Virus record (IMG/VR): IMGVR_UViG_2713896785_000025
Source of the DNA: a virus
Taxonomy: Duplodnaviria; Heunggongvirae; Uroviricota; Caudoviricetes
Direction: 5' to 3' (one strand)
DNA length: 12,187 bases
Shown: one piece after another, positions 2,600 to 10,592 of the stretch
How the letters are laid out: every line of letters starts with the position of its first letter
How positions within the stretch are numbered: the stretch's first letter is position 1
Translations under genes and position numbers: made by a program
Notes under the pieces: generated by a model
Told to the model about the DNA's origin: nothing
Seen by the model: the letters and a program-made list of their open reading frames with translations, nothing else
Databases searched by the model: none

Positions 2600-3142
2600 T
2601 TACTCGCCTTTCTTCTGTAGCAACTTTTCCGGTACGTTTCCGGTTGTTTCTTTCAAGTAATCAGCCAGTATCTGTGGGAGGTTGTCGGCAACTCTGGCAC
2701 TGGCATTACAGGCTTTAACCACTTCCCTTTTAAGCCTGTCCAGCATGGCGGGGGGAATCTGTGGGAAGCTCCTTTGCATAGTAAGCGGGAGGATGTCCAT
2801 GATTGATGAAATCTGACTCGCCAGCTTTGAAAGCGCGTACAGGCAAAACTCAGTATCAATCACGTCACCGCGATCGCGATCGTTTTTAAGTTCCTGCGCC
2901 TCTGCCTGTGCTGTCAGTAATCTGATCCTGACTCGTAAAAGTTCATCATCGTCAATCTCGCCTTTGTCGTTTATAAGCTGGCTAATTGCATTGTTAACCC
3001 TATTTTCTATCACGCTGGCAACATCATAAAACGCCTCACGGCCTTTACGCTCAACGGGAGTTACTCCCCACTTGTCGAACGCTGTCGCACTTACACGGCA
3101 GCTTTTCGCCATGTTTTTTTTGTTCATCAGATGAGATTTCAT
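2600..3142 (-). CDS. Terminase small subunit, lambda Nu1-like (180 aa)
   Basis: Blocks shared with lambda Nu1 as recalled: NKK near N-terminus, LT(A/R)AQA(E/D)AQELKN.RD, (E/A)FC..(A/V)LS, ILPL(T/S)(M/V)QR.FP, LKR(E/D)(V/I)(V/I)KA. SD-like GGTG before ATG 3140-3142. Confidence 0.85.
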   Translation of the reverse strand: MKSHLMNKKNMAKSCRVSATAFDKWGVTPVERKGREAFYDVASVIENRVNNAISQLINDKGEIDDDELLRVRIRLLTAQAEAQELKNDRDRGDVIDTEFCLYALSKLASQISSIMDILPLTMQRSFPQIPPAMLDRLKREVVKACNASARVADNLPQILADYLKETTGNVPEKLLQKKGE

Positions 3143-3250
3143 TAATACACCAACTTAATTACTGCTTCAGGTTGGTGTATTGCTTGCATCTTTCCCTTTT
3201 CATTCATAAAGATAGATCAAACAACAAAACCACCACCACCCCCCTGAAAA

Positions 3251-3319
3251 GGCTCATAAATAGCGAAAATCCGCGAGGTCTCCGCCCCGTAACAGGTCCA
3301 TATGCCGGAAAGGACCCGC
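3251..3319 (-). other. Second lambda-type cos (cos2) in minus orientation: cosQ-like flank, cosN-like GGGCGGAGACCT (rc of 3276-3287, one mismatch), proximal cosB-like sequence, about 135 bp upstream of terS start
   Basis: Minus strand reads GCGGGTCCTTTCCGGCATATGGACCTGTTACG GGGCGGAGACCT CGCGGATTTTCGCTATTTATGA, closely matching the lambda right-end/left-end junction as recalled. Confidence 0.7.
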
Positions 3320-3341
3320 AAAAAAGCCGGATTTCTCCGGC
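3320..3341 (-). terminator. Intrinsic terminator (copy 1 of a thrice-repeated motif)
   Basis: Minus-strand RNA: hairpin GCCGGAGAAAUCCGGC followed by U6; 7 nt downstream of stop of gene 3348-3761. Confidence 0.6.
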
Positions 3342-3347
3342 CTTGTC

Positions 3348-3761
3348 TCAGATGGTTTTCAGTATGCGATCGATGTCGCCGTCATCGCCCGGGTTTCTGC
3401 CATCGTATGCCATGCCAGCTGATACGGCTTGTGGGCTGTGCATGTCCATAAAGTTTTCAAAGGCTGCGGTAAGCTCTGGTGCAACCTTCGGGCGTTCCTG
3501 CTCTATGGTCATGTTCAGGATGTTTTTAGCCGTATCAACATCAATACAAGGCACGTTTGCCATTGCACGTAACAGCGGCTGATAGTCGTCAGATTCATGA
3601 AGCGCCATAATCGCATCAGCGCGCGGCTTGTCCTTCTCTTCCAGGCTGTTAAGTTGATATACGGCCTCGTAGGTTGATAAACCTCTGTCAGCCATTGCCC
3701 GCGCTTCGGCTTTAAATTTACTCGCCAGCGGTAGCGTCATGATACTTTCATTCGTTGCCAT
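3348..3761 (-). CDS. Hypothetical protein (137 aa), between decoration gene and terS
   Basis: ORF with SD-like AGGGGGA upstream of ATG; 12-nt gap after the upstream gene stop; no recognisable motif. Confidence 0.65.
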   Translation of the reverse strand: MATNESIMTLPLASKFKAEARAMADRGLSTYEAVYQLNSLEEKDKPRADAIMALHESDDYQPLLRAMANVPCIDVDTAKNILNMTIEQERPKVAPELTAAFENFMDMHSPQAVSAGMAYDGRNPGDDGDIDRILKTI

Positions 3762-3773
3762 CGTTCCCCCTGC

Positions 3774-4109
3774 TTATCGCGCCAGCGGCTGAACGGATAC
3801 GCCAGAACCCGCAAAGGCGGCGCATTTTTTCGCGTCGGTGTCGGCGCTCTCAGGCCAGTTAACGGCGGCAATATTGAATATCCCCGTCTTGTAGCACTGT
3901 GCTGATTTCTGCGTCGACGTGTCCACGGGGTACGAGGTCAGATAAACAGCCTTGCCAGATTCCTGACCATCCCACGGCTTAAACTCGCCATTTTCCGCCA
4001 GCATCAGCGGGGTAAATTCCTGAATAACGCCAGCATCAGCAGCAAAATGTACCAGCGTCGTGGATACCTGCTGACTACCTGCAAATAACTCAATGTATGG
4101 AGTGTCCAT
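3774..4109 (-). CDS. Head decoration protein, lambda gpD-like (111 aa)
   Basis: Motifs shared with lambda D as recalled: TPLML, WDG, YK(T/S)G(I/T)F, WPE, KK..AFAG; same length class; SD GGGGGGA in 12-nt spacer after MCP stop. Confidence 0.85.
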   Translation of the reverse strand: MDTPYIELFAGSQQVSTTLVHFAADAGVIQEFTPLMLAENGEFKPWDGQESGKAVYLTSYPVDTSTQKSAQCYKTGIFNIAAVNWPESADTDAKKCAAFAGSGVSVQPLAR

Positions 4110-4121
4110 AGAATCCCCCCG

Positions 4122-5177
4122 TTAACCAATTTTGACGGTAACAAATTTGCGAATATCTGCCGGTACCGGCTGCGGTGCGCTGTGCGTCTGCACGTACTCA
4201 ATCGCCGGATCGCCGTCCTCAATCCAGTTTTTCGGGTAAAACATGTTTTGCGTTGCGCCCGTTCTGACCGCTTCCTGATCCATAATCGCACCATAGGCCA
4301 CCAGCCCTTTATTGTTGGTGTTACCCAGGACCAGCAAATCAGGCTCAAGGAAATATTTTTCGGTGCCGTCGCTGTCAGTGTATTTGCCGGAATAGACGAC
4401 AAGGGCAATATCGCCCAGATAGCCTTTAAAGCTCACCACTTCACCCAGGTTTTTACAGGCCAGTTCTGCGGCGGATTCTGAACCACGGGAAAGGTCGTAC
4501 AGTTCGCGGAATTTTTTAAAGCTGCGTAACGTGCGCCATACTTCAGCGCCCATAATCATGACGTTTGCGGGGCAATTGCCCTGATCAGCATAAAGCTCGA
4601 TGTCATAGATTGGATCGTGTGTTTCTTTATCCAGCTCAGACCATTTTTTACCGTCAGCCTGTTCTATGATATTGCTTTCCGGGATCTTCCAGTCGATTTC
4701 ATAGCGTTCTATGCCTTCGCCCTCAATGAGGTTTTTTCCGGTCGTTACCGCATTCACCGCCAGCCATTCCACGCGTGCCTTAATGGCGTTTATCTGGCGG
4801 CGCATGTTGCCAGTAATCAGGCGCATACGGCGATAGGTAGGATCGTTAAGCTGTGCCGGATCTTCTCCAGCCATGCGCATGATGGTTTTTGTTGGATCGA
4901 TTTCGTGTTTGGGTTTCATGTAGCCTGGTTTAATCGTGCTGGTTTCGTACCCTTTATCGCGCTGGACCTGACTACCCACCATAGGCGAACAGAACGCTGA
5001 CATCGTAACCTCTTCAATGTCCAGGGTGTCCAGCATGATGTTCTGGGTGTTGAAGGTCGCCACGTTCGGGAAAAACAGCGTGGTAAACAGCGGACTGAAT
5101 TTAAATTCTGCAATATCCCCGCGATTCAGGTACGCGAAAAGCTGGTTAGTGTTAAGTGCCGTTGCTTTGCCTGCCAT
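4122..5177 (-). CDS. Major capsid protein, lambda gpE-like (351 aa)
   Basis: Motifs shared with lambda E as recalled: (K/E)FKF.PLF..LFF, PGY(V/M)KPKHE, EDP..L.DP.YRR.R, YSG.Y, YPKNW...GDPA, SAP. Strong SD GGAGGTGA; start overlaps upstream stop (TAATG). Confidence 0.9.
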   Translation of the reverse strand: MAGKATALNTNQLFAYLNRGDIAEFKFSPLFTTLFFPNVATFNTQNIMLDTLDIEEVTMSAFCSPMVGSQVQRDKGYETSTIKPGYMKPKHEIDPTKTIMRMAGEDPAQLNDPTYRRMRLITGNMRRQINAIKARVEWLAVNAVTTGKNLIEGEGIERYEIDWKIPESNIIEQADGKKWSELDKETHDPIYDIELYADQGNCPANVMIMGAEVWRTLRSFKKFRELYDLSRGSESAAELACKNLGEVVSFKGYLGDIALVVYSGKYTDSDGTEKYFLEPDLLVLGNTNNKGLVAYGAIMDQEAVRTGATQNMFYPKNWIEDGDPAIEYVQTHSAPQPVPADIRKFVTVKIG

Positions 5178-5383
5178 TATTCACCTCCATGCGTCTGATT
5201 CATGCCCAGCGCCGCGCGTAAATAGGCGCGGACCTGCCAGCCTGTTGACGGCTCAACCATCGCCAGCGGATCAAGTCCTGCCGCAATGCCTGCTTTTACG
5301 TTCTGCTGGTGGCGTTCCTTGAGCGCCTTCACGATGTCGGGGCTTATGTACACCGAAACACCGCCTTTTTTCTCTTCAGCCAT
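5177..5383 (-). CDS. Hypothetical protein (68 aa), first gene of capsid operon
   Basis: ORF with SD AGGA 7-9 nt upstream of ATG; stop overlaps MCP start codon. Confidence 0.6.
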   Translation of the reverse strand: MAEEKKGGVSVYISPDIVKALKERHQQNVKAGIAAGLDPLAMVEPSTGWQVRAYLRAALGMNQTHGGE

Positions 5384-5439
5384 AGTAAGAAATTCCTCTT
5401 CGACTTAAAAAATCATAACTGGATGTTTATCCAGTCCTG

Positions 5440-8528: not shown

Positions 8529-8871
8529 TTCTTGCCCCTGAATCCGTTAATCATGGTTTTCAGCTTCTGGATGTTTGCCCGTGCCCTGGCGTTGCTGGTG
8601 GGCACGTTATGCGGCGCGGTCTGTACCAGAGAAAAATCACGCCGGAACTGATAAACAGGCATCACGCAATCATATTCGTAACCTTCACGNNNNNNNNNNN
8701 NNNNNNNNNNNNNNNNNNNNNNNNNNNNNNNNNNNNNNNNNNTGATTTTTGTTTGTCGCGTTCATTGTCGCCAAGTGTTTCAAGCCATATGCGCAATATT
8801 TCCAGCATGTTTTCACTGTGAGAAAGTGCAAGAAATGCGCGGTCTATTGTTTGGTGGTAAATATCACGCAT
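8525..8871 (-). CDS. Hypothetical protein interrupted by assembly gap (N-terminal 43 codons 8743-8871; C-terminal 54 codons 8528-8689 plus stop 8525-8527)
   Basis: Both fragments are open right up to the gap edges; ATG 8869-8871 with SD GAGGA; C-terminal frame ends with TGA overlapping replicase ATG. The stated gap length (53) is not a multiple of 3, so continuity is unproven. Confidence 0.45.
8690..8742. other. Assembly gap (53 N)
   Basis: Run of n characters in the sequence. Confidence 1.
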
Positions 8872-9328
8872 GGCTTACATCCTCAGGAAATTTTCTTCTA
8901 TAACGCGCCTCTGCCACATATTCCGCATAATCGGCGGCGATATTCAGTACATCAAGCCCCGTTGATTTATATTCTCTCGTGGAAAGTAAGAAAAAAGCCG
9001 CTCTAATAAGTTCTGGCATTGACGAAAGCGCATCAGCCGCATCATCAGGAACGCCGGAAAATTCCTGTTTCAGGGAATTAAAACGATCATCACGCATAAC
9101 CCCCCCATTTTCACAATCAGCAATCAGGATGGCTTTGGCCTCATTCAGCGCCATATCCGCACTAAGTTGCATAACCGCCAGCGAATGAGGAACGAAAGCC
9201 CCGGCATATTCTGTTTCACTGGTGGCGTGCTTATGCGCCATGTCTGCGATAACAGAAATATCAATCAGCGCGTGCATTAGCGTTATGATGGCTTCGGCGG
9301 CTGCGTCCGGACGGATGTTATTGCACAT
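8864..9328 (-). CDS. Hypothetical protein (154 aa), first clearly supported gene of leftward early operon
   Basis: Near-consensus SD AGGAGGTG 5-6 nt upstream of ATG 9326-9328; stop overlaps next start by 8 nt. Confidence 0.65.
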   Translation of the reverse strand: MCNNIRPDAAAEAIITLMHALIDISVIADMAHKHATSETEYAGAFVPHSLAVMQLSADMALNEAKAILIADCENGGVMRDDRFNSLKQEFSGVPDDAADALSSMPELIRAAFFLLSTREYKSTGLDVLNIAADYAEYVAEARYRRKFPEDVSHA

Positions 9329-9524
9329 GGCACACCTCCTGACGAATACGGGCAGCGAATACCATCACGCAGCCAGCCGGAGATTGCTGGCGTGCTTCCT
9401 GTTCGCTGGTGGCCTCAATGGTAATCACGCGCGGTTGTGCCGTGCTCAGGGCGATAAAACGCCAGATGTATTTATTCAGGTTGTGCGAGTCCCGCCCTTG
9501 CGGGTGTGTGGTATGATTTCTCAT
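9318..9524 (-). CDS. Possible small protein (68 aa); C-terminal part of the 342-aa track ORF
   Basis: ATG at 9522-9524 (rc) with GAGGT 4 nt upstream; otherwise unsupported, and it contains the SD of the next gene. Confidence 0.25.
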   Translation of the reverse strand: MRNHTTHPQGRDSHNLNKYIWRFIALSTAQPRVITIEATSEQEARQQSPAGCVMVFAARIRQEVCHVQ

Positions 9525-9620
9525 AGCTACCTCGATACTTTCGCTATCGTTGGTGGTTAGAAGCCCGGTTAGTGTTAGCGCACTGCCGGGTTTCGTCGTT
9601 TCTGCACCTTGCGCCAACAA

Positions 9621-9674
9621 GGTGTTGAACACCAATTTAAACCCAGGTGTTAAACACGTCAAGTGTTGAACACT
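9621..9674. promoter_or_regulatory. Three palindromic operator-like sites GTGTT-N-AACAC with candidate rightward promoter
   Basis: GGTGTTGAACACC 9621-9633, GGTGTTAAACACG 9646-9658, AGTGTTGAACACT 9662-9674 (centres 25 and 16 bp apart). -35 TTGAAC 9666-9671 inside site 3, 17-nt spacer, -10 CATACT 9689-9694, upstream of ORF 9724. Confidence 0.6.
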
Positions 9675-9723
9675 TATTTTTTTTCCTGCATACTGCATTT
9701 GTTTTTTATGAGGGGTACACCAC

Positions 9724-9903
9724 ATGGCGACAAAAGCAGTAAACGCAAAATCACAAACCGTTGCGGCAAGGGTTCCGCATGAAGTTATGAACAATGTTGA
9801 GGCGGTAAAAATGCCTGGCGAAAGTACGGGGCAATTTGTTACTGCAGCATTAAAACGAGAAGTTGAATATCGCCAGCGGCGCAAGGCCAAAGAACCAGAG
9901 TAA
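9724..9903 (+). CDS. Small DNA-binding protein, ribbon-helix-helix-like (59 aa)
   Basis: Not in ORF track (below size cut-off). ATG 9724 with SD GAGGGG 8 nt upstream; pattern beta-strand TVAARVP, helix, loop GES, helix resembles Arc/CopG-type RHH; basic C-terminus. Confidence 0.55.
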   Translation: MATKAVNAKSQTVAARVPHEVMNNVEAVKMPGESTGQFVTAALKREVEYRQRRKAKEPE

Positions 9904-9960
9904 TCACCATCAGCGCCGTGGTGTAAGGTATTACGGCGCATTGCTATGCAGGACAACACA

Positions 9961-10134
9961 ATGACCGATAAAGAATTGACCAAAACATTATCACCGGCAC
10001 GGAAAAGACGGCGCAGAAAGATAGAGCATGAATCAGAAAGATTCGCGCCATGTGCTTTTGCCCTTGAGCAATTCCTTAAAGAGTACAGGGAAAAGCGCTC
10101 ATTGCAGGTATGGCAACGAACTGAACCAGACTGA
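9961..10134 (+). CDS. Small basic hypothetical protein (57 aa; track ORF starts at 9946)
   Basis: ATG 9961 has SD AGGA with 7-nt spacer; Arg/Lys-rich segment RKRRRRK; followed by terminator. Confidence 0.45.
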   Translation: MTDKELTKTLSPARKRRRRKIEHESERFAPCAFALEQFLKEYREKRSLQVWQRTEPD

Positions 10135-10228
10135 TAGCATTGCCCACCAGCCTGATAGCGACTATCATTGCCGTTCTTATGTTTGGGATCACACACACAA
10201 ACGGCGCAGCGGGTTATCTGTTCAGAAA

Positions 10229-10257
10229 GGCGGCTCCATTTCGGGGCCGCTTTTTTT
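10229..10257 (+). terminator. Intrinsic terminator for rightward transcript
   Basis: Stem GCGGCTCC/GGGGCCGC (one G-U pair), loop ATTTC, then T7 on + strand. Confidence 0.65.
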
Positions 10258-10403
10258 ATGTCTGAAAAACCCCAATTTTGTTGTTTTTCAGTTTCACCAG
10301 GGCGAACGAATCCCCGCCCACGTTCTGGCGTATATTCAATCTTCATGGTTATAGCTCTGTGTTCAGATGATTGATGTGTGGCGGCTGCGTGCCGCCAGCG
10401 TGA

Positions 10404-10592
10404 TTAATGAACTGCCTTGCAGCTATCCTTCCAGGCCAGAACCTCGGATAAAGACCAGCCAACGGAACGACCGCCAAGTTTACGACGTGATGGGAATTGT
10501 CCGGCCTTTTCCAGGCGGTAGCGACACGTACGGCTAAGGCCGGTTAGTTTTTCGCATTCTTTTTCACGTATAAACCGATCAGTGCTTAACAC
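10404..10592 (-). CDS. AlpA-family transcriptional regulator (about 62 aa from GTG; track gives 89 aa from TTG at 10673)
   Basis: HTH block LTGLSRTCRYRLEKAGQFP..RKLGGRSVGWSLSEV.AW typical of AlpA/Phage_AlpA as recalled; GTG at 10590-10592 (rc) preceded by SD AGGGGGG with 5-nt spacer; no internal ATG. Confidence 0.8.
   Translation of the reverse strand: MLSTDRFIREKECEKLTGLSRTCRYRLEKAGQFPSRRKLGGRSVGWSLSEVLAWKDSCKAVH

Follow-up and report, generated by a model that had tools for sequence, protein, structure and literature searches.

A probable allele-specific ribbon-helix-helix repressor and its cassette lie antisense within a conserved stop-free frame of a Gram-negative phage-inducible chromosomal island

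The region considered here, positions 9724-10257, belongs to a 12,187-nt stretch of DNA (the window) from the caudovirus record IMGVR_UViG_2713896785_000025 of IMG/VR, and carries a cassette of two short plus-strand ORFs (open reading frames), ORF1 and ORF2, followed by a terminator. Between positions 9500 and 10400 the window was 100% identical to many Escherichia coli chromosomes, for example that of O26:H11 strain 11368, in which the copy forms an island of about 10 kb with phoQ on one side and roxA on the other. The genes called in this island by the Prokaryotic Genome Annotation Pipeline (PGAP) comprise int, alpA, an Icd-like gene, DUF4222, a RepA-type helicase, SSB, PerC, and genes for the major capsid protein, the decoration protein and the small terminase subunit. 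Because this gene order matches, the window is a Gram-negative phage-inducible chromosomal island (PICI), an AlpA-type phage satellite. EcCICFT073, the prototype Gram-negative PICI, has the same regulatory region, the ORF1/ORF2 cassette included.

Both ORFs were present where a sequence-only reading of the window had placed them, on the plus strand and with lengths of 59 and 57 amino acids (aa). They were also, as that reading had stated, the only plus-strand genes of the island, all genes besides the cassette being assigned to the minus strand in the PGAP annotation of the identical O26:H11 island. The layout that it had described was borne out as well, with a divergent operator/promoter region, two genes convergent with alpA and a terminator of their own. 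What it overlooked is that the cassette is nested, in antisense, in a conserved stop-free minus-strand frame. The features on which the analysis turns are the following.

9620-9632, 9645-9657 and 9661-9673: three operator repeats AGGTGTTRAACAC, a near-palindrome GTGTT-N-AACAC (GTGTTRAACAC)
9634-9662, minus strand: leftward early promoter, sigma-70-like, from a promoter scan (-35 TTGACG at 9662-9657, 17-nt spacer, -10 TAAATT at 9639-9634)
9666-9694, plus strand: rightward cassette promoter, read by eye (-35 TTGAAC at 9666-9671 within operator 3, 17-nt spacer, -10 CATACT at 9689-9694)
9724-9903, plus strand: ORF1 (ATG at 9724, stop at 9903), 59 aa, YlcI/YnfO family, ribbon-helix-helix (RHH)-type fold, probable operator-binding repressor
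9961-10134, plus strand: ORF2, 57 aa, Arg/Lys-rich disordered N-terminus and a single helix, Shine-Dalgarno sequence AGGA at 9950-9953
10226-10257, plus strand: intrinsic terminator, an 8-bp GC stem extendable by A-U pairs and then U7
9318-10346, minus strand: long ORF of 342 codons; the stop-free frame itself runs from 10403 to 9321 (361 codons)
9318-9524, minus strand: Icd-like gene, 68 aa (NCBIfam NF033153, PGAP, phrog_6196), opens the early operon and forms the C-terminal part of the long ORF, in which it is nested
10404-10592, minus strand: alpA, activator gene (Pfam PF05930, E = 1.5e-16; PGAP), convergent with the cassette and upstream of the long ORF

ORF1 is preceded by a Shine-Dalgarno sequence (GAGGGG, 9710-9715) and scored 59.7 bits against the NCBIfam model NF041551 (YlcI/YnfO; curated cut-off 30, E = 2.1e-16). 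It had been expected from the sequence that routine annotation would miss this gene; in fact PGAP names it 'YlcI/YnfO family protein' (WP_000201461.1), and the gene left uncalled in this genome is ORF2, in place of which a minus-strand pseudogene is called. Homologues of ORF1 with 57-64 aa were found in Salmonella, Klebsiella, Serratia, Pectobacterium, Proteus and Xenorhabdus, all starting with MATKAVNAKS and having invariant residues in common. Start, stop, Shine-Dalgarno sequence and length were kept across five genera, and in all five about 195 nt separated the gene from the first early gene, which is read divergently from it. The YlcI/YnfO proteins of the E. coli K-12 cryptic prophages DLP12 and Qin belong to the same family (NF041551), whose cut-off ORF1 exceeds; the satellite subfamily represented by ORF1 differs from them in its fixed place by an early promoter and was almost absent from 50,697 phage records, and the family is without an assigned function.

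The Pfam search gave no match for ORF1 or for ORF2, and each of the two matched a PHROG family of unknown function (phrog_21027 in the case of ORF2). In the AlphaFold2 monomer of ORF1 (predicted local distance difference test, pLDDT, 78.6) an extended segment at residues 11-17 was followed by helices at residues 19-28 and 35-56, with pLDDT of at least 90 at residues 21-50. This model points with moderate confidence to an RHH fold; the confidence is only moderate because a PDB profile search, Foldseek against the PDB and hhalign against Arc all failed to return a significant match. The small RHH proteins Arc and Mnt of P22 and the omega repressor of pSM19035, which act on repeated operators, had no significant sequence similarity to ORF1 and stand in other genomic contexts.

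The operator pattern was matched seven times, compared with 0.34 matches expected, and none of 200 shuffles equalled that number; the rest of the window was without matches, save one one-mismatch site in alpA. The leftward promoter, from which the Icd-like gene and then the replication genes are predicted to be transcribed, has its spacer filled by operator 2 and its predicted start site covered by operator 1. Every allele keeps the motif GTCAA, which reads TTGAC on the minus strand, and a rightward -10 of the form (C/T)ATACT or TATATT recurs at an unchanged position throughout the alleles and genera. Over the alpA start codon (10582-10592) lies a fourth operator-like site, GTGCTTAACAC, which was rejected as a coincidence, since it occurs whatever the RHH allele.

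In RHH proteins the DNA-reading segment is the stretch that matches residues 11-15 of ORF1. Variation within the YlcI/YnfO family was concentrated at exactly these residues, right before the invariant Arg16, and the repeats of the divergent region co-varied with them. The comparison covered 20 loci from five genera, 12 of them from E. coli or Shigella (the window and 11 others); loci are given with the prefix L where they have to be told apart. The RHH beta-strands and the repeats found with them were as follows.

QT(V/I)AAR: repeat GTGTTNAACAC, in the window, Salmonella and Klebsiella
KKLEAR: repeat GTGTCAGCCAC, in Xenorhabdus and Proteus
QALKAR: repeat GGTGTGGCCCAC, in CFT073
QKLQAR: repeat TGGATTCCA, in L010
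QMKNIR: repeat GTGTATATACA, in L011 and L012
QS(L/V)TAR: repeats of the GTAAGAC and CTTACA types, in L007, L008, L009 and L013
Arc-type RHH proteins: repeat AGGTGACCAC or GGTAATTACC, in O157:H7

Two controls bear on this correspondence. The window, L002, L003 and L004 encode an identical AlpA (WP_000953272.1), yet their operators differ; the Icd-like proteins of the window and CFT073 are near-identical, yet here too the operators differ. The repeats therefore follow the RHH protein alone. ORF1 is, on these sequence comparisons, probably an allele-specific repressor of the early promoter, from which the Icd-like to replication genes would be transcribed. Repression of the early operon is predicted from the repeats on the leftward -35, spacer and +1, and autoregulation of ORF1 from the repeat on the rightward -35.

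The exchange of RHH genes goes beyond the YlcI/YnfO family. In two O157:H7 islands (L003 2325-2498 and L004 2307-2498) an unrelated Arc/HicB-like RHH gene (phrog_228, E = 5e-7) stands at the place of ORF1 with repeats of its own, and PGAP leaves this gene uncalled and calls a minus-strand ORF instead. The regulatory cassette is tandemly duplicated in L007 (1013-2257) and L010 (1821-2945), in the order YlcI-type RHH gene, spacer, distant 75-aa ORF2 variant, leader remnant, second operator set, Arc-type RHH gene, spacer and ORF2.

The alternative that the cassette is a self-contained accessory unit, in which ORF1 controls only its own promoter and ORF2 and takes no part in the island life cycle, has to be considered at this point. 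The relatives after which the family is named, ylcI and ynfO, reside in lambdoid cryptic prophages, which counts for such a unit, and ORF2 is without a known function. In the literature searched, YlcI/YnfO figures only as an accessory 'prophage-associated' protein (PMC13612085). Against this, two of the three operators lie on the leftward -35, spacer and +1 and not on ORF1's own promoter, the divergent position and the gap to the first early gene are fixed in five genera, and the subfamily is all but missing from the phage records searched, so that an accessory unit of this kind seems unlikely.

ORF2 had been proposed as the partner of the RHH protein, either as companion of a repressor or as one half of an antitoxin-like pair. 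An alternative ATG upstream, at 9946, would give a protein of 62 aa but lacks a Shine-Dalgarno sequence. The gene is annotated in CFT073 (WP_000130015.1) and several other strains, and 36 homologues of 57-70 aa were collected, from E. coli or Shigella only, with an invariant core SERFAPCAFALExFLKEY and indels that keep the frame. A profile search of 1.8 billion representative proteins returned only nine clusters, one of which was an unrelated repetitive protein, and a scan of species-representative genomes found ORF2 in Shigella flexneri only. AlphaFold2 predicted one long helix (residues 29-54) behind a disordered basic N-terminus. Searches of Pfam, NCBIfam and PADLOC gave no toxin, defence or other family match for ORF2, and the module of Klebsiella, Salmonella, Proteus and Xenorhabdus does not contain it. 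Within E. coli the same ORF2 sits behind RHH genes of either unrelated family, after a conserved 57-nt spacer.

Its absence from the other genera and the swapping of the RHH genes in front of it indicate that ORF2 is neither an obligate partner nor a toxin of the RHH protein. A type II toxin-antitoxin system, with an RHH antitoxin and a small basic toxin stabilizing the island, is thus rejected as very improbable: beyond the lack of a family match and of a counterpart in four other genera, the predicted protein is a disordered tail with one helix, and it stays constant while unrelated RHH proteins are exchanged upstream, whereas antitoxins normally co-evolve with their toxins. Judged from its sequence and distribution, ORF2 is a genuine but narrow E. 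coli/Shigella orphan, a lineage accessory protein. Its arginine-rich tail would possibly suit a nucleic-acid-binding co-regulator, which is speculation.

The 57-nt spacer between the RHH gene and ORF2 holds one further feature.

9913-9939, plus strand: GC-rich inverted repeat GCGCCGTGGTG...TATTACGGCGC

It folds at -17.7 kcal/mol, no better than shuffled sequences (z = -1.0); the spacer length and the outer 5-6 bp are kept in all E. coli loci, without covariation. Just past the ORF2 stop, the motif CATTGCCCACCAGCC (10139-10153, plus strand) is kept in every E. coli locus although its flanks and the terminator vary.

The terminator behind ORF2 consists of the stem GCGGCTCC (10230-10237), the loop ATTTC, the stem GGGGCCGC (10243-10250) and a T7 tract (10251-10257). 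It is as strong as had been supposed from the sequence, with a plus-strand fold of -24.2 kcal/mol (z = -4.5) that none of 200 shuffles matched in stability. A simple consensus terminator scan did not list the hairpin, but folding supports it, and it recurs in CFT073 (GCGCTCC/GGGGCGC) and other loci with changes on both sides of the stem. On the minus strand the fold was weak (z = -1.8) and without a U tract, and the terminator thus serves the plus-strand unit only.

Read on the minus strand, the same DNA is open from end to end. The long ORF passes antisense through the terminator, ORF2, ORF1, the operators and the leader and then runs in frame into the Icd-like gene. The corresponding frame was open over 221-607 codons in the other 11 E. 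coli/Shigella loci, beginning beside the end of alpA or of a Bro/Ant gene, and in nine of the 12 it reached the Icd-like stop codon in frame; in L007, with 607 codons, it was open through the entire duplication. The loci of the other genera, too, had this frame open across the RHH gene, and it was open in all 20 loci although neither the RHH genes nor the operators are homologous from one locus to another. Over eight loci no stop was found in this frame, compared with 11-25 expected (11.2 for the window). Zero stops were obtained in none of 2000 dinucleotide-preserving shuffles, and the remaining five frames have 6-45 stops. When codon usage was resampled, antisense stops proved to be avoided in all 21 plus-strand genes examined, with per-gene probabilities of 0.06-0.9 that combine to about 1e-7 over roughly ten independent alleles.

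The first 20 or so codons of the long ORF (10270-10346; MKIEYTPERGRGFVRP..., MKIEYTPERGRGFVRPGETEKQ) are homologous to the N-terminus of the Ant/Bro proteins encoded downstream of alpA elsewhere, and by this similarity the Bro/Ant gene appears to have been deleted in the window with an in-frame stub left behind. Where Bro/Ant is intact (L008 and L011), the stop codon of ant and the ATG of the long ORF overlap as ATGTGTAA, as is typical of translationally coupled genes. In the window 57 nt separate the alpA stop codon from this ATG, and the Shine-Dalgarno sequence in front of the ATG is weak. Between alpA and the start of the long ORF, directly after the alpA stop codon, the minus strand carries a GC hairpin (GGCGGC-ACGCA-GCCGCC, 10380-10396) without a U tract, which is kept in CFT073 and O157:H7.

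An open frame of this length raises the question of which strand is coding. It could be held that the minus strand alone codes, for a long Bro/Icd-like fusion protein, and that ORF1 and ORF2 are artefacts of gene calling; the frame is significantly open, and PGAP at times calls long minus-strand proteins or pseudogenes. The pattern of amino acid replacement points the other way. The mean BLOSUM62 score of replacements in the plus frame was +0.17 for ORF1, -0.09 for ORF2 and +0.12 for the Arc-type RHH gene, compared with -1.08, -1.37 and -1.18, respectively, in the minus frame, and the Icd-like gene, used as a control, had the same asymmetry in favour of its true strand. Replacements that are conservative in the plus frame and random-looking in the minus frame indicate that the proteins under selection are those of the plus strand. 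ORF1, moreover, falls in curated families, its start, stop, Shine-Dalgarno sequence and length are those kept in five genera, and its variable residues track the operators. Coding by the minus strand alone is scarcely credible on this evidence, and was rejected. The antisense nesting explains the inconsistent PGAP calls across the frame, which range from pseudogenes ('missing C-terminus') to Icd-like proteins of 66-171 aa and a 247-aa hypothetical protein and include the omitted RHH gene in O157:H7.

Between the operators and the Icd-like gene lies another plus-strand element.

9525-9606, plus strand: candidate small RNA made up of two hairpins and a U-rich tail, antisense to the start codon of the Icd-like gene and to its ribosome-binding site

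Ahead of it, at 9509-9517, stands an extended -10 element, TGGTATGAT. The Rfam model symR (RF01809) matched at 9525-9597 with 33.3 bits (E = 0.0037), under its gathering score of 61, and the matches at the same place in three other loci (30.8-41.1 bits) were likewise all under that score. The predicted fold had z = -4.7, eight base pairs showed compensatory changes and G-U pairs favoured the plus strand. Like SymR of the SymE/SymR system, the element is about 75 nt long, has its promoter within the neighbouring gene and lies opposite that gene's start codon and ribosome-binding site; it differs in that its target is unrelated to symE and that its Rfam scores are below the gathering score. By analogy with the action of P4 immunity on kil translation, this RNA may form a second layer of control on the early operon.

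The arrangement as a whole resembles that of satellite P4. As summarized from Forti et al. (1999) in PMC10111431, P4 has a long gene, eta, which is coupled to vis, the homologue of alpA, and which is translated on transcripts of an activated upstream promoter only. The constitutive early promoter lies within eta, the in-frame end of which is kil, and translation of eta prevents immunity-dependent termination. The constitutive promoter is named PLE and the activated one PLL, and the immunity factor is CI RNA. P4 and the island have in common an upstream gene of the AlpA family and, behind it, a long ORF that stretches across an internal early promoter and whose in-frame end is a short gene with a product that harms the cell (kil or the Icd-like gene). 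Coupling of this ORF to the upstream gene, as described for P4, is suggested for the satellites by the start-stop overlap in L008 and L011. For both, read-through from the activated promoter is proposed to be insensitive to immunity through translation of the transcript. The immunity factor of P4 is an RNA encoded on the same strand, whereas that of the island is apparently an RHH protein encoded on the opposite strand inside the long ORF; the island has in addition the second small gene, a terminator of its own and the candidate antisense RNA.

We therefore propose, with a probability of about 0.55, that the cassette is a local immunity module in which ORF1 represses the early promoter and AlpA-driven, translated read-through bypasses ORF1. 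A dimer of ORF1 on the operators would repress the internal early promoter and regulate its own synthesis, and in the resting island the Icd-like, replication and packaging genes would be silent in an allele-specific ('heteroimmune') manner. When a helper phage turns on alpA, transcripts from the alpA promoter would pass the weak minus-strand face of the terminator and be translated without a break along the long ORF into the Icd-like gene. Shielded by unbroken translation, these transcripts would escape both premature termination and the antisense RNA that faces the ribosome-binding site of the Icd-like gene. The repressor would be bypassed in the fashion of eta and kil in P4, and convergent transcription would at the same time silence the cassette.

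The published results on EcCICFT073 fit this proposal. In that island AlpA, which is induced by a helper phage, activates downstream genes and its own promoter and is alone enough for excision and replication, and the work on it identified the activator AlpA only and no repressor (PMC6092414).

Several observations weigh against the proposed module. The rightward promoter agrees with the consensus at 8 of 12 positions, a weak match that is under the cut-off of the promoter scan. The minus-strand frame ends a short way ahead of the first early gene in the loci from Klebsiella and Salmonella and in three of the 12 from E. coli/Shigella. A test of third-position synonymous changes did not separate the strands (8 compared with 3 for ORF1, 9 compared with 7 for ORF2), being blind to strand because the minus frame has the same third codon positions as ORF1 and ORF2. 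The Icd-like protein matched no P4 record in the phage search, and Rfam gave no C4 or isrK match, either for the window, where E values up to 1 were admitted, or for 12 related loci, where the limit was 0.1, so that the parallel with P4 is an analogy.

The sequence-only reading had cast ORF1 as a master repressor with a partner. The repressor part of this claim stands, given the co-variation of operators and beta-strand residues; the partner does not, and a master in the sense of the staphylococcal Stl is doubtful. Were ORF1 of the Stl type, the whole island would be silent until a helper-phage protein bound ORF1, with no role for AlpA read-through or the long frame. ORF1 does lie at the place of Stl/Rpr in the Staphylococcus aureus pathogenicity islands and other Gram-positive PICIs (PMC6092414), divergent from the early, excision and replication operon, which it too probably silences. 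Its operators overlap the early promoter, and the alleles of 101 aa have an extra helical insert that could be an effector-binding domain. Stl proteins are, however, larger helix-turn-helix proteins that are inactivated by helper-phage proteins and encoded in the same direction as int, whereas ORF1 is a 59-aa protein of RHH type convergent with int and alpA. Over-expression of AlpA without a helper phage induces excision and replication of EcCICFT073, an island that has the ORF1/ORF2 cassette (PMC6092414). Because the stop-free antisense frame would also be left unexplained, a repressor of the Stl type is considered improbable.

A broader form of the proposed bypass is put forward more tentatively, at somewhat less than even odds. 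About 900 bp would be used on both strands as a genetic switch, with the plus strand encoding the allele-specific RHH repressor (and, in E. coli, a second small protein) and the minus strand kept translatable for AlpA-driven reading from alpA/bro into the Icd-like and replication genes, which would evade the repressor, termination and the antisense RNA. Convergence would make the two states mutually exclusive, and the fast-changing RHH/operator pairs would define immunity groups among the satellites of Enterobacterales.

A few further observations concern the surroundings of the cassette. The early operon of the window contains 53 masked bases (N) at 8690-8742, between the gene at 8864-9328 and the RepA-type helicase gene, which corresponds to the region of DUF4222 and a small hypothetical gene in the O26 record. 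In L019, a Salmonella relative of the island, a protein encoded at 2064-2294 matches the Pfam 'Derepression' family (PF25738). We take this family to be related to P4 epsilon, which would tie YlcI-bearing elements to P4-like satellites. At 2600-5400 the minus strand of the window encodes a lambda-like major capsid protein, a head decoration protein and the small terminase subunit. Portal and large terminase genes are missing there, and the island was for this reason likened to PICIs with captured late genes (PMC10111431) and not to a complete capsid-forming PICI.

ORF1 and ORF2 are already in the databases and are not new objects. In the searchable literature, outside which subscription journals largely lie, no link of YlcI/YnfO or of any other RHH protein to PICI repression was found. 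Three things were likewise not found described there, namely a YlcI/YnfO-type RHH protein as allele-specific repressor of Gram-negative PICIs or P4-like satellites, the correspondence between beta-strand and operator, and the antisense nesting in a conserved translatable frame.

The analysis provides a concrete candidate repressor for Gram-negative PICIs, with predicted operators and a readable correspondence between the RHH beta-strand and the operator. EcCICFT073 has the same cassette, so that the idea is directly testable in the prototype island. The locus is also a clear natural example of overlapping antisense frames held by unlike constraints, one strand conserving a protein sequence and the other only its translatability, and the stop-free antisense frame suggests a way for AlpA to bypass the repressor. 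If true, the proposal would supply the repressor that is missing from the model of Gram-negative PICIs, together with the means by which AlpA overrides it.

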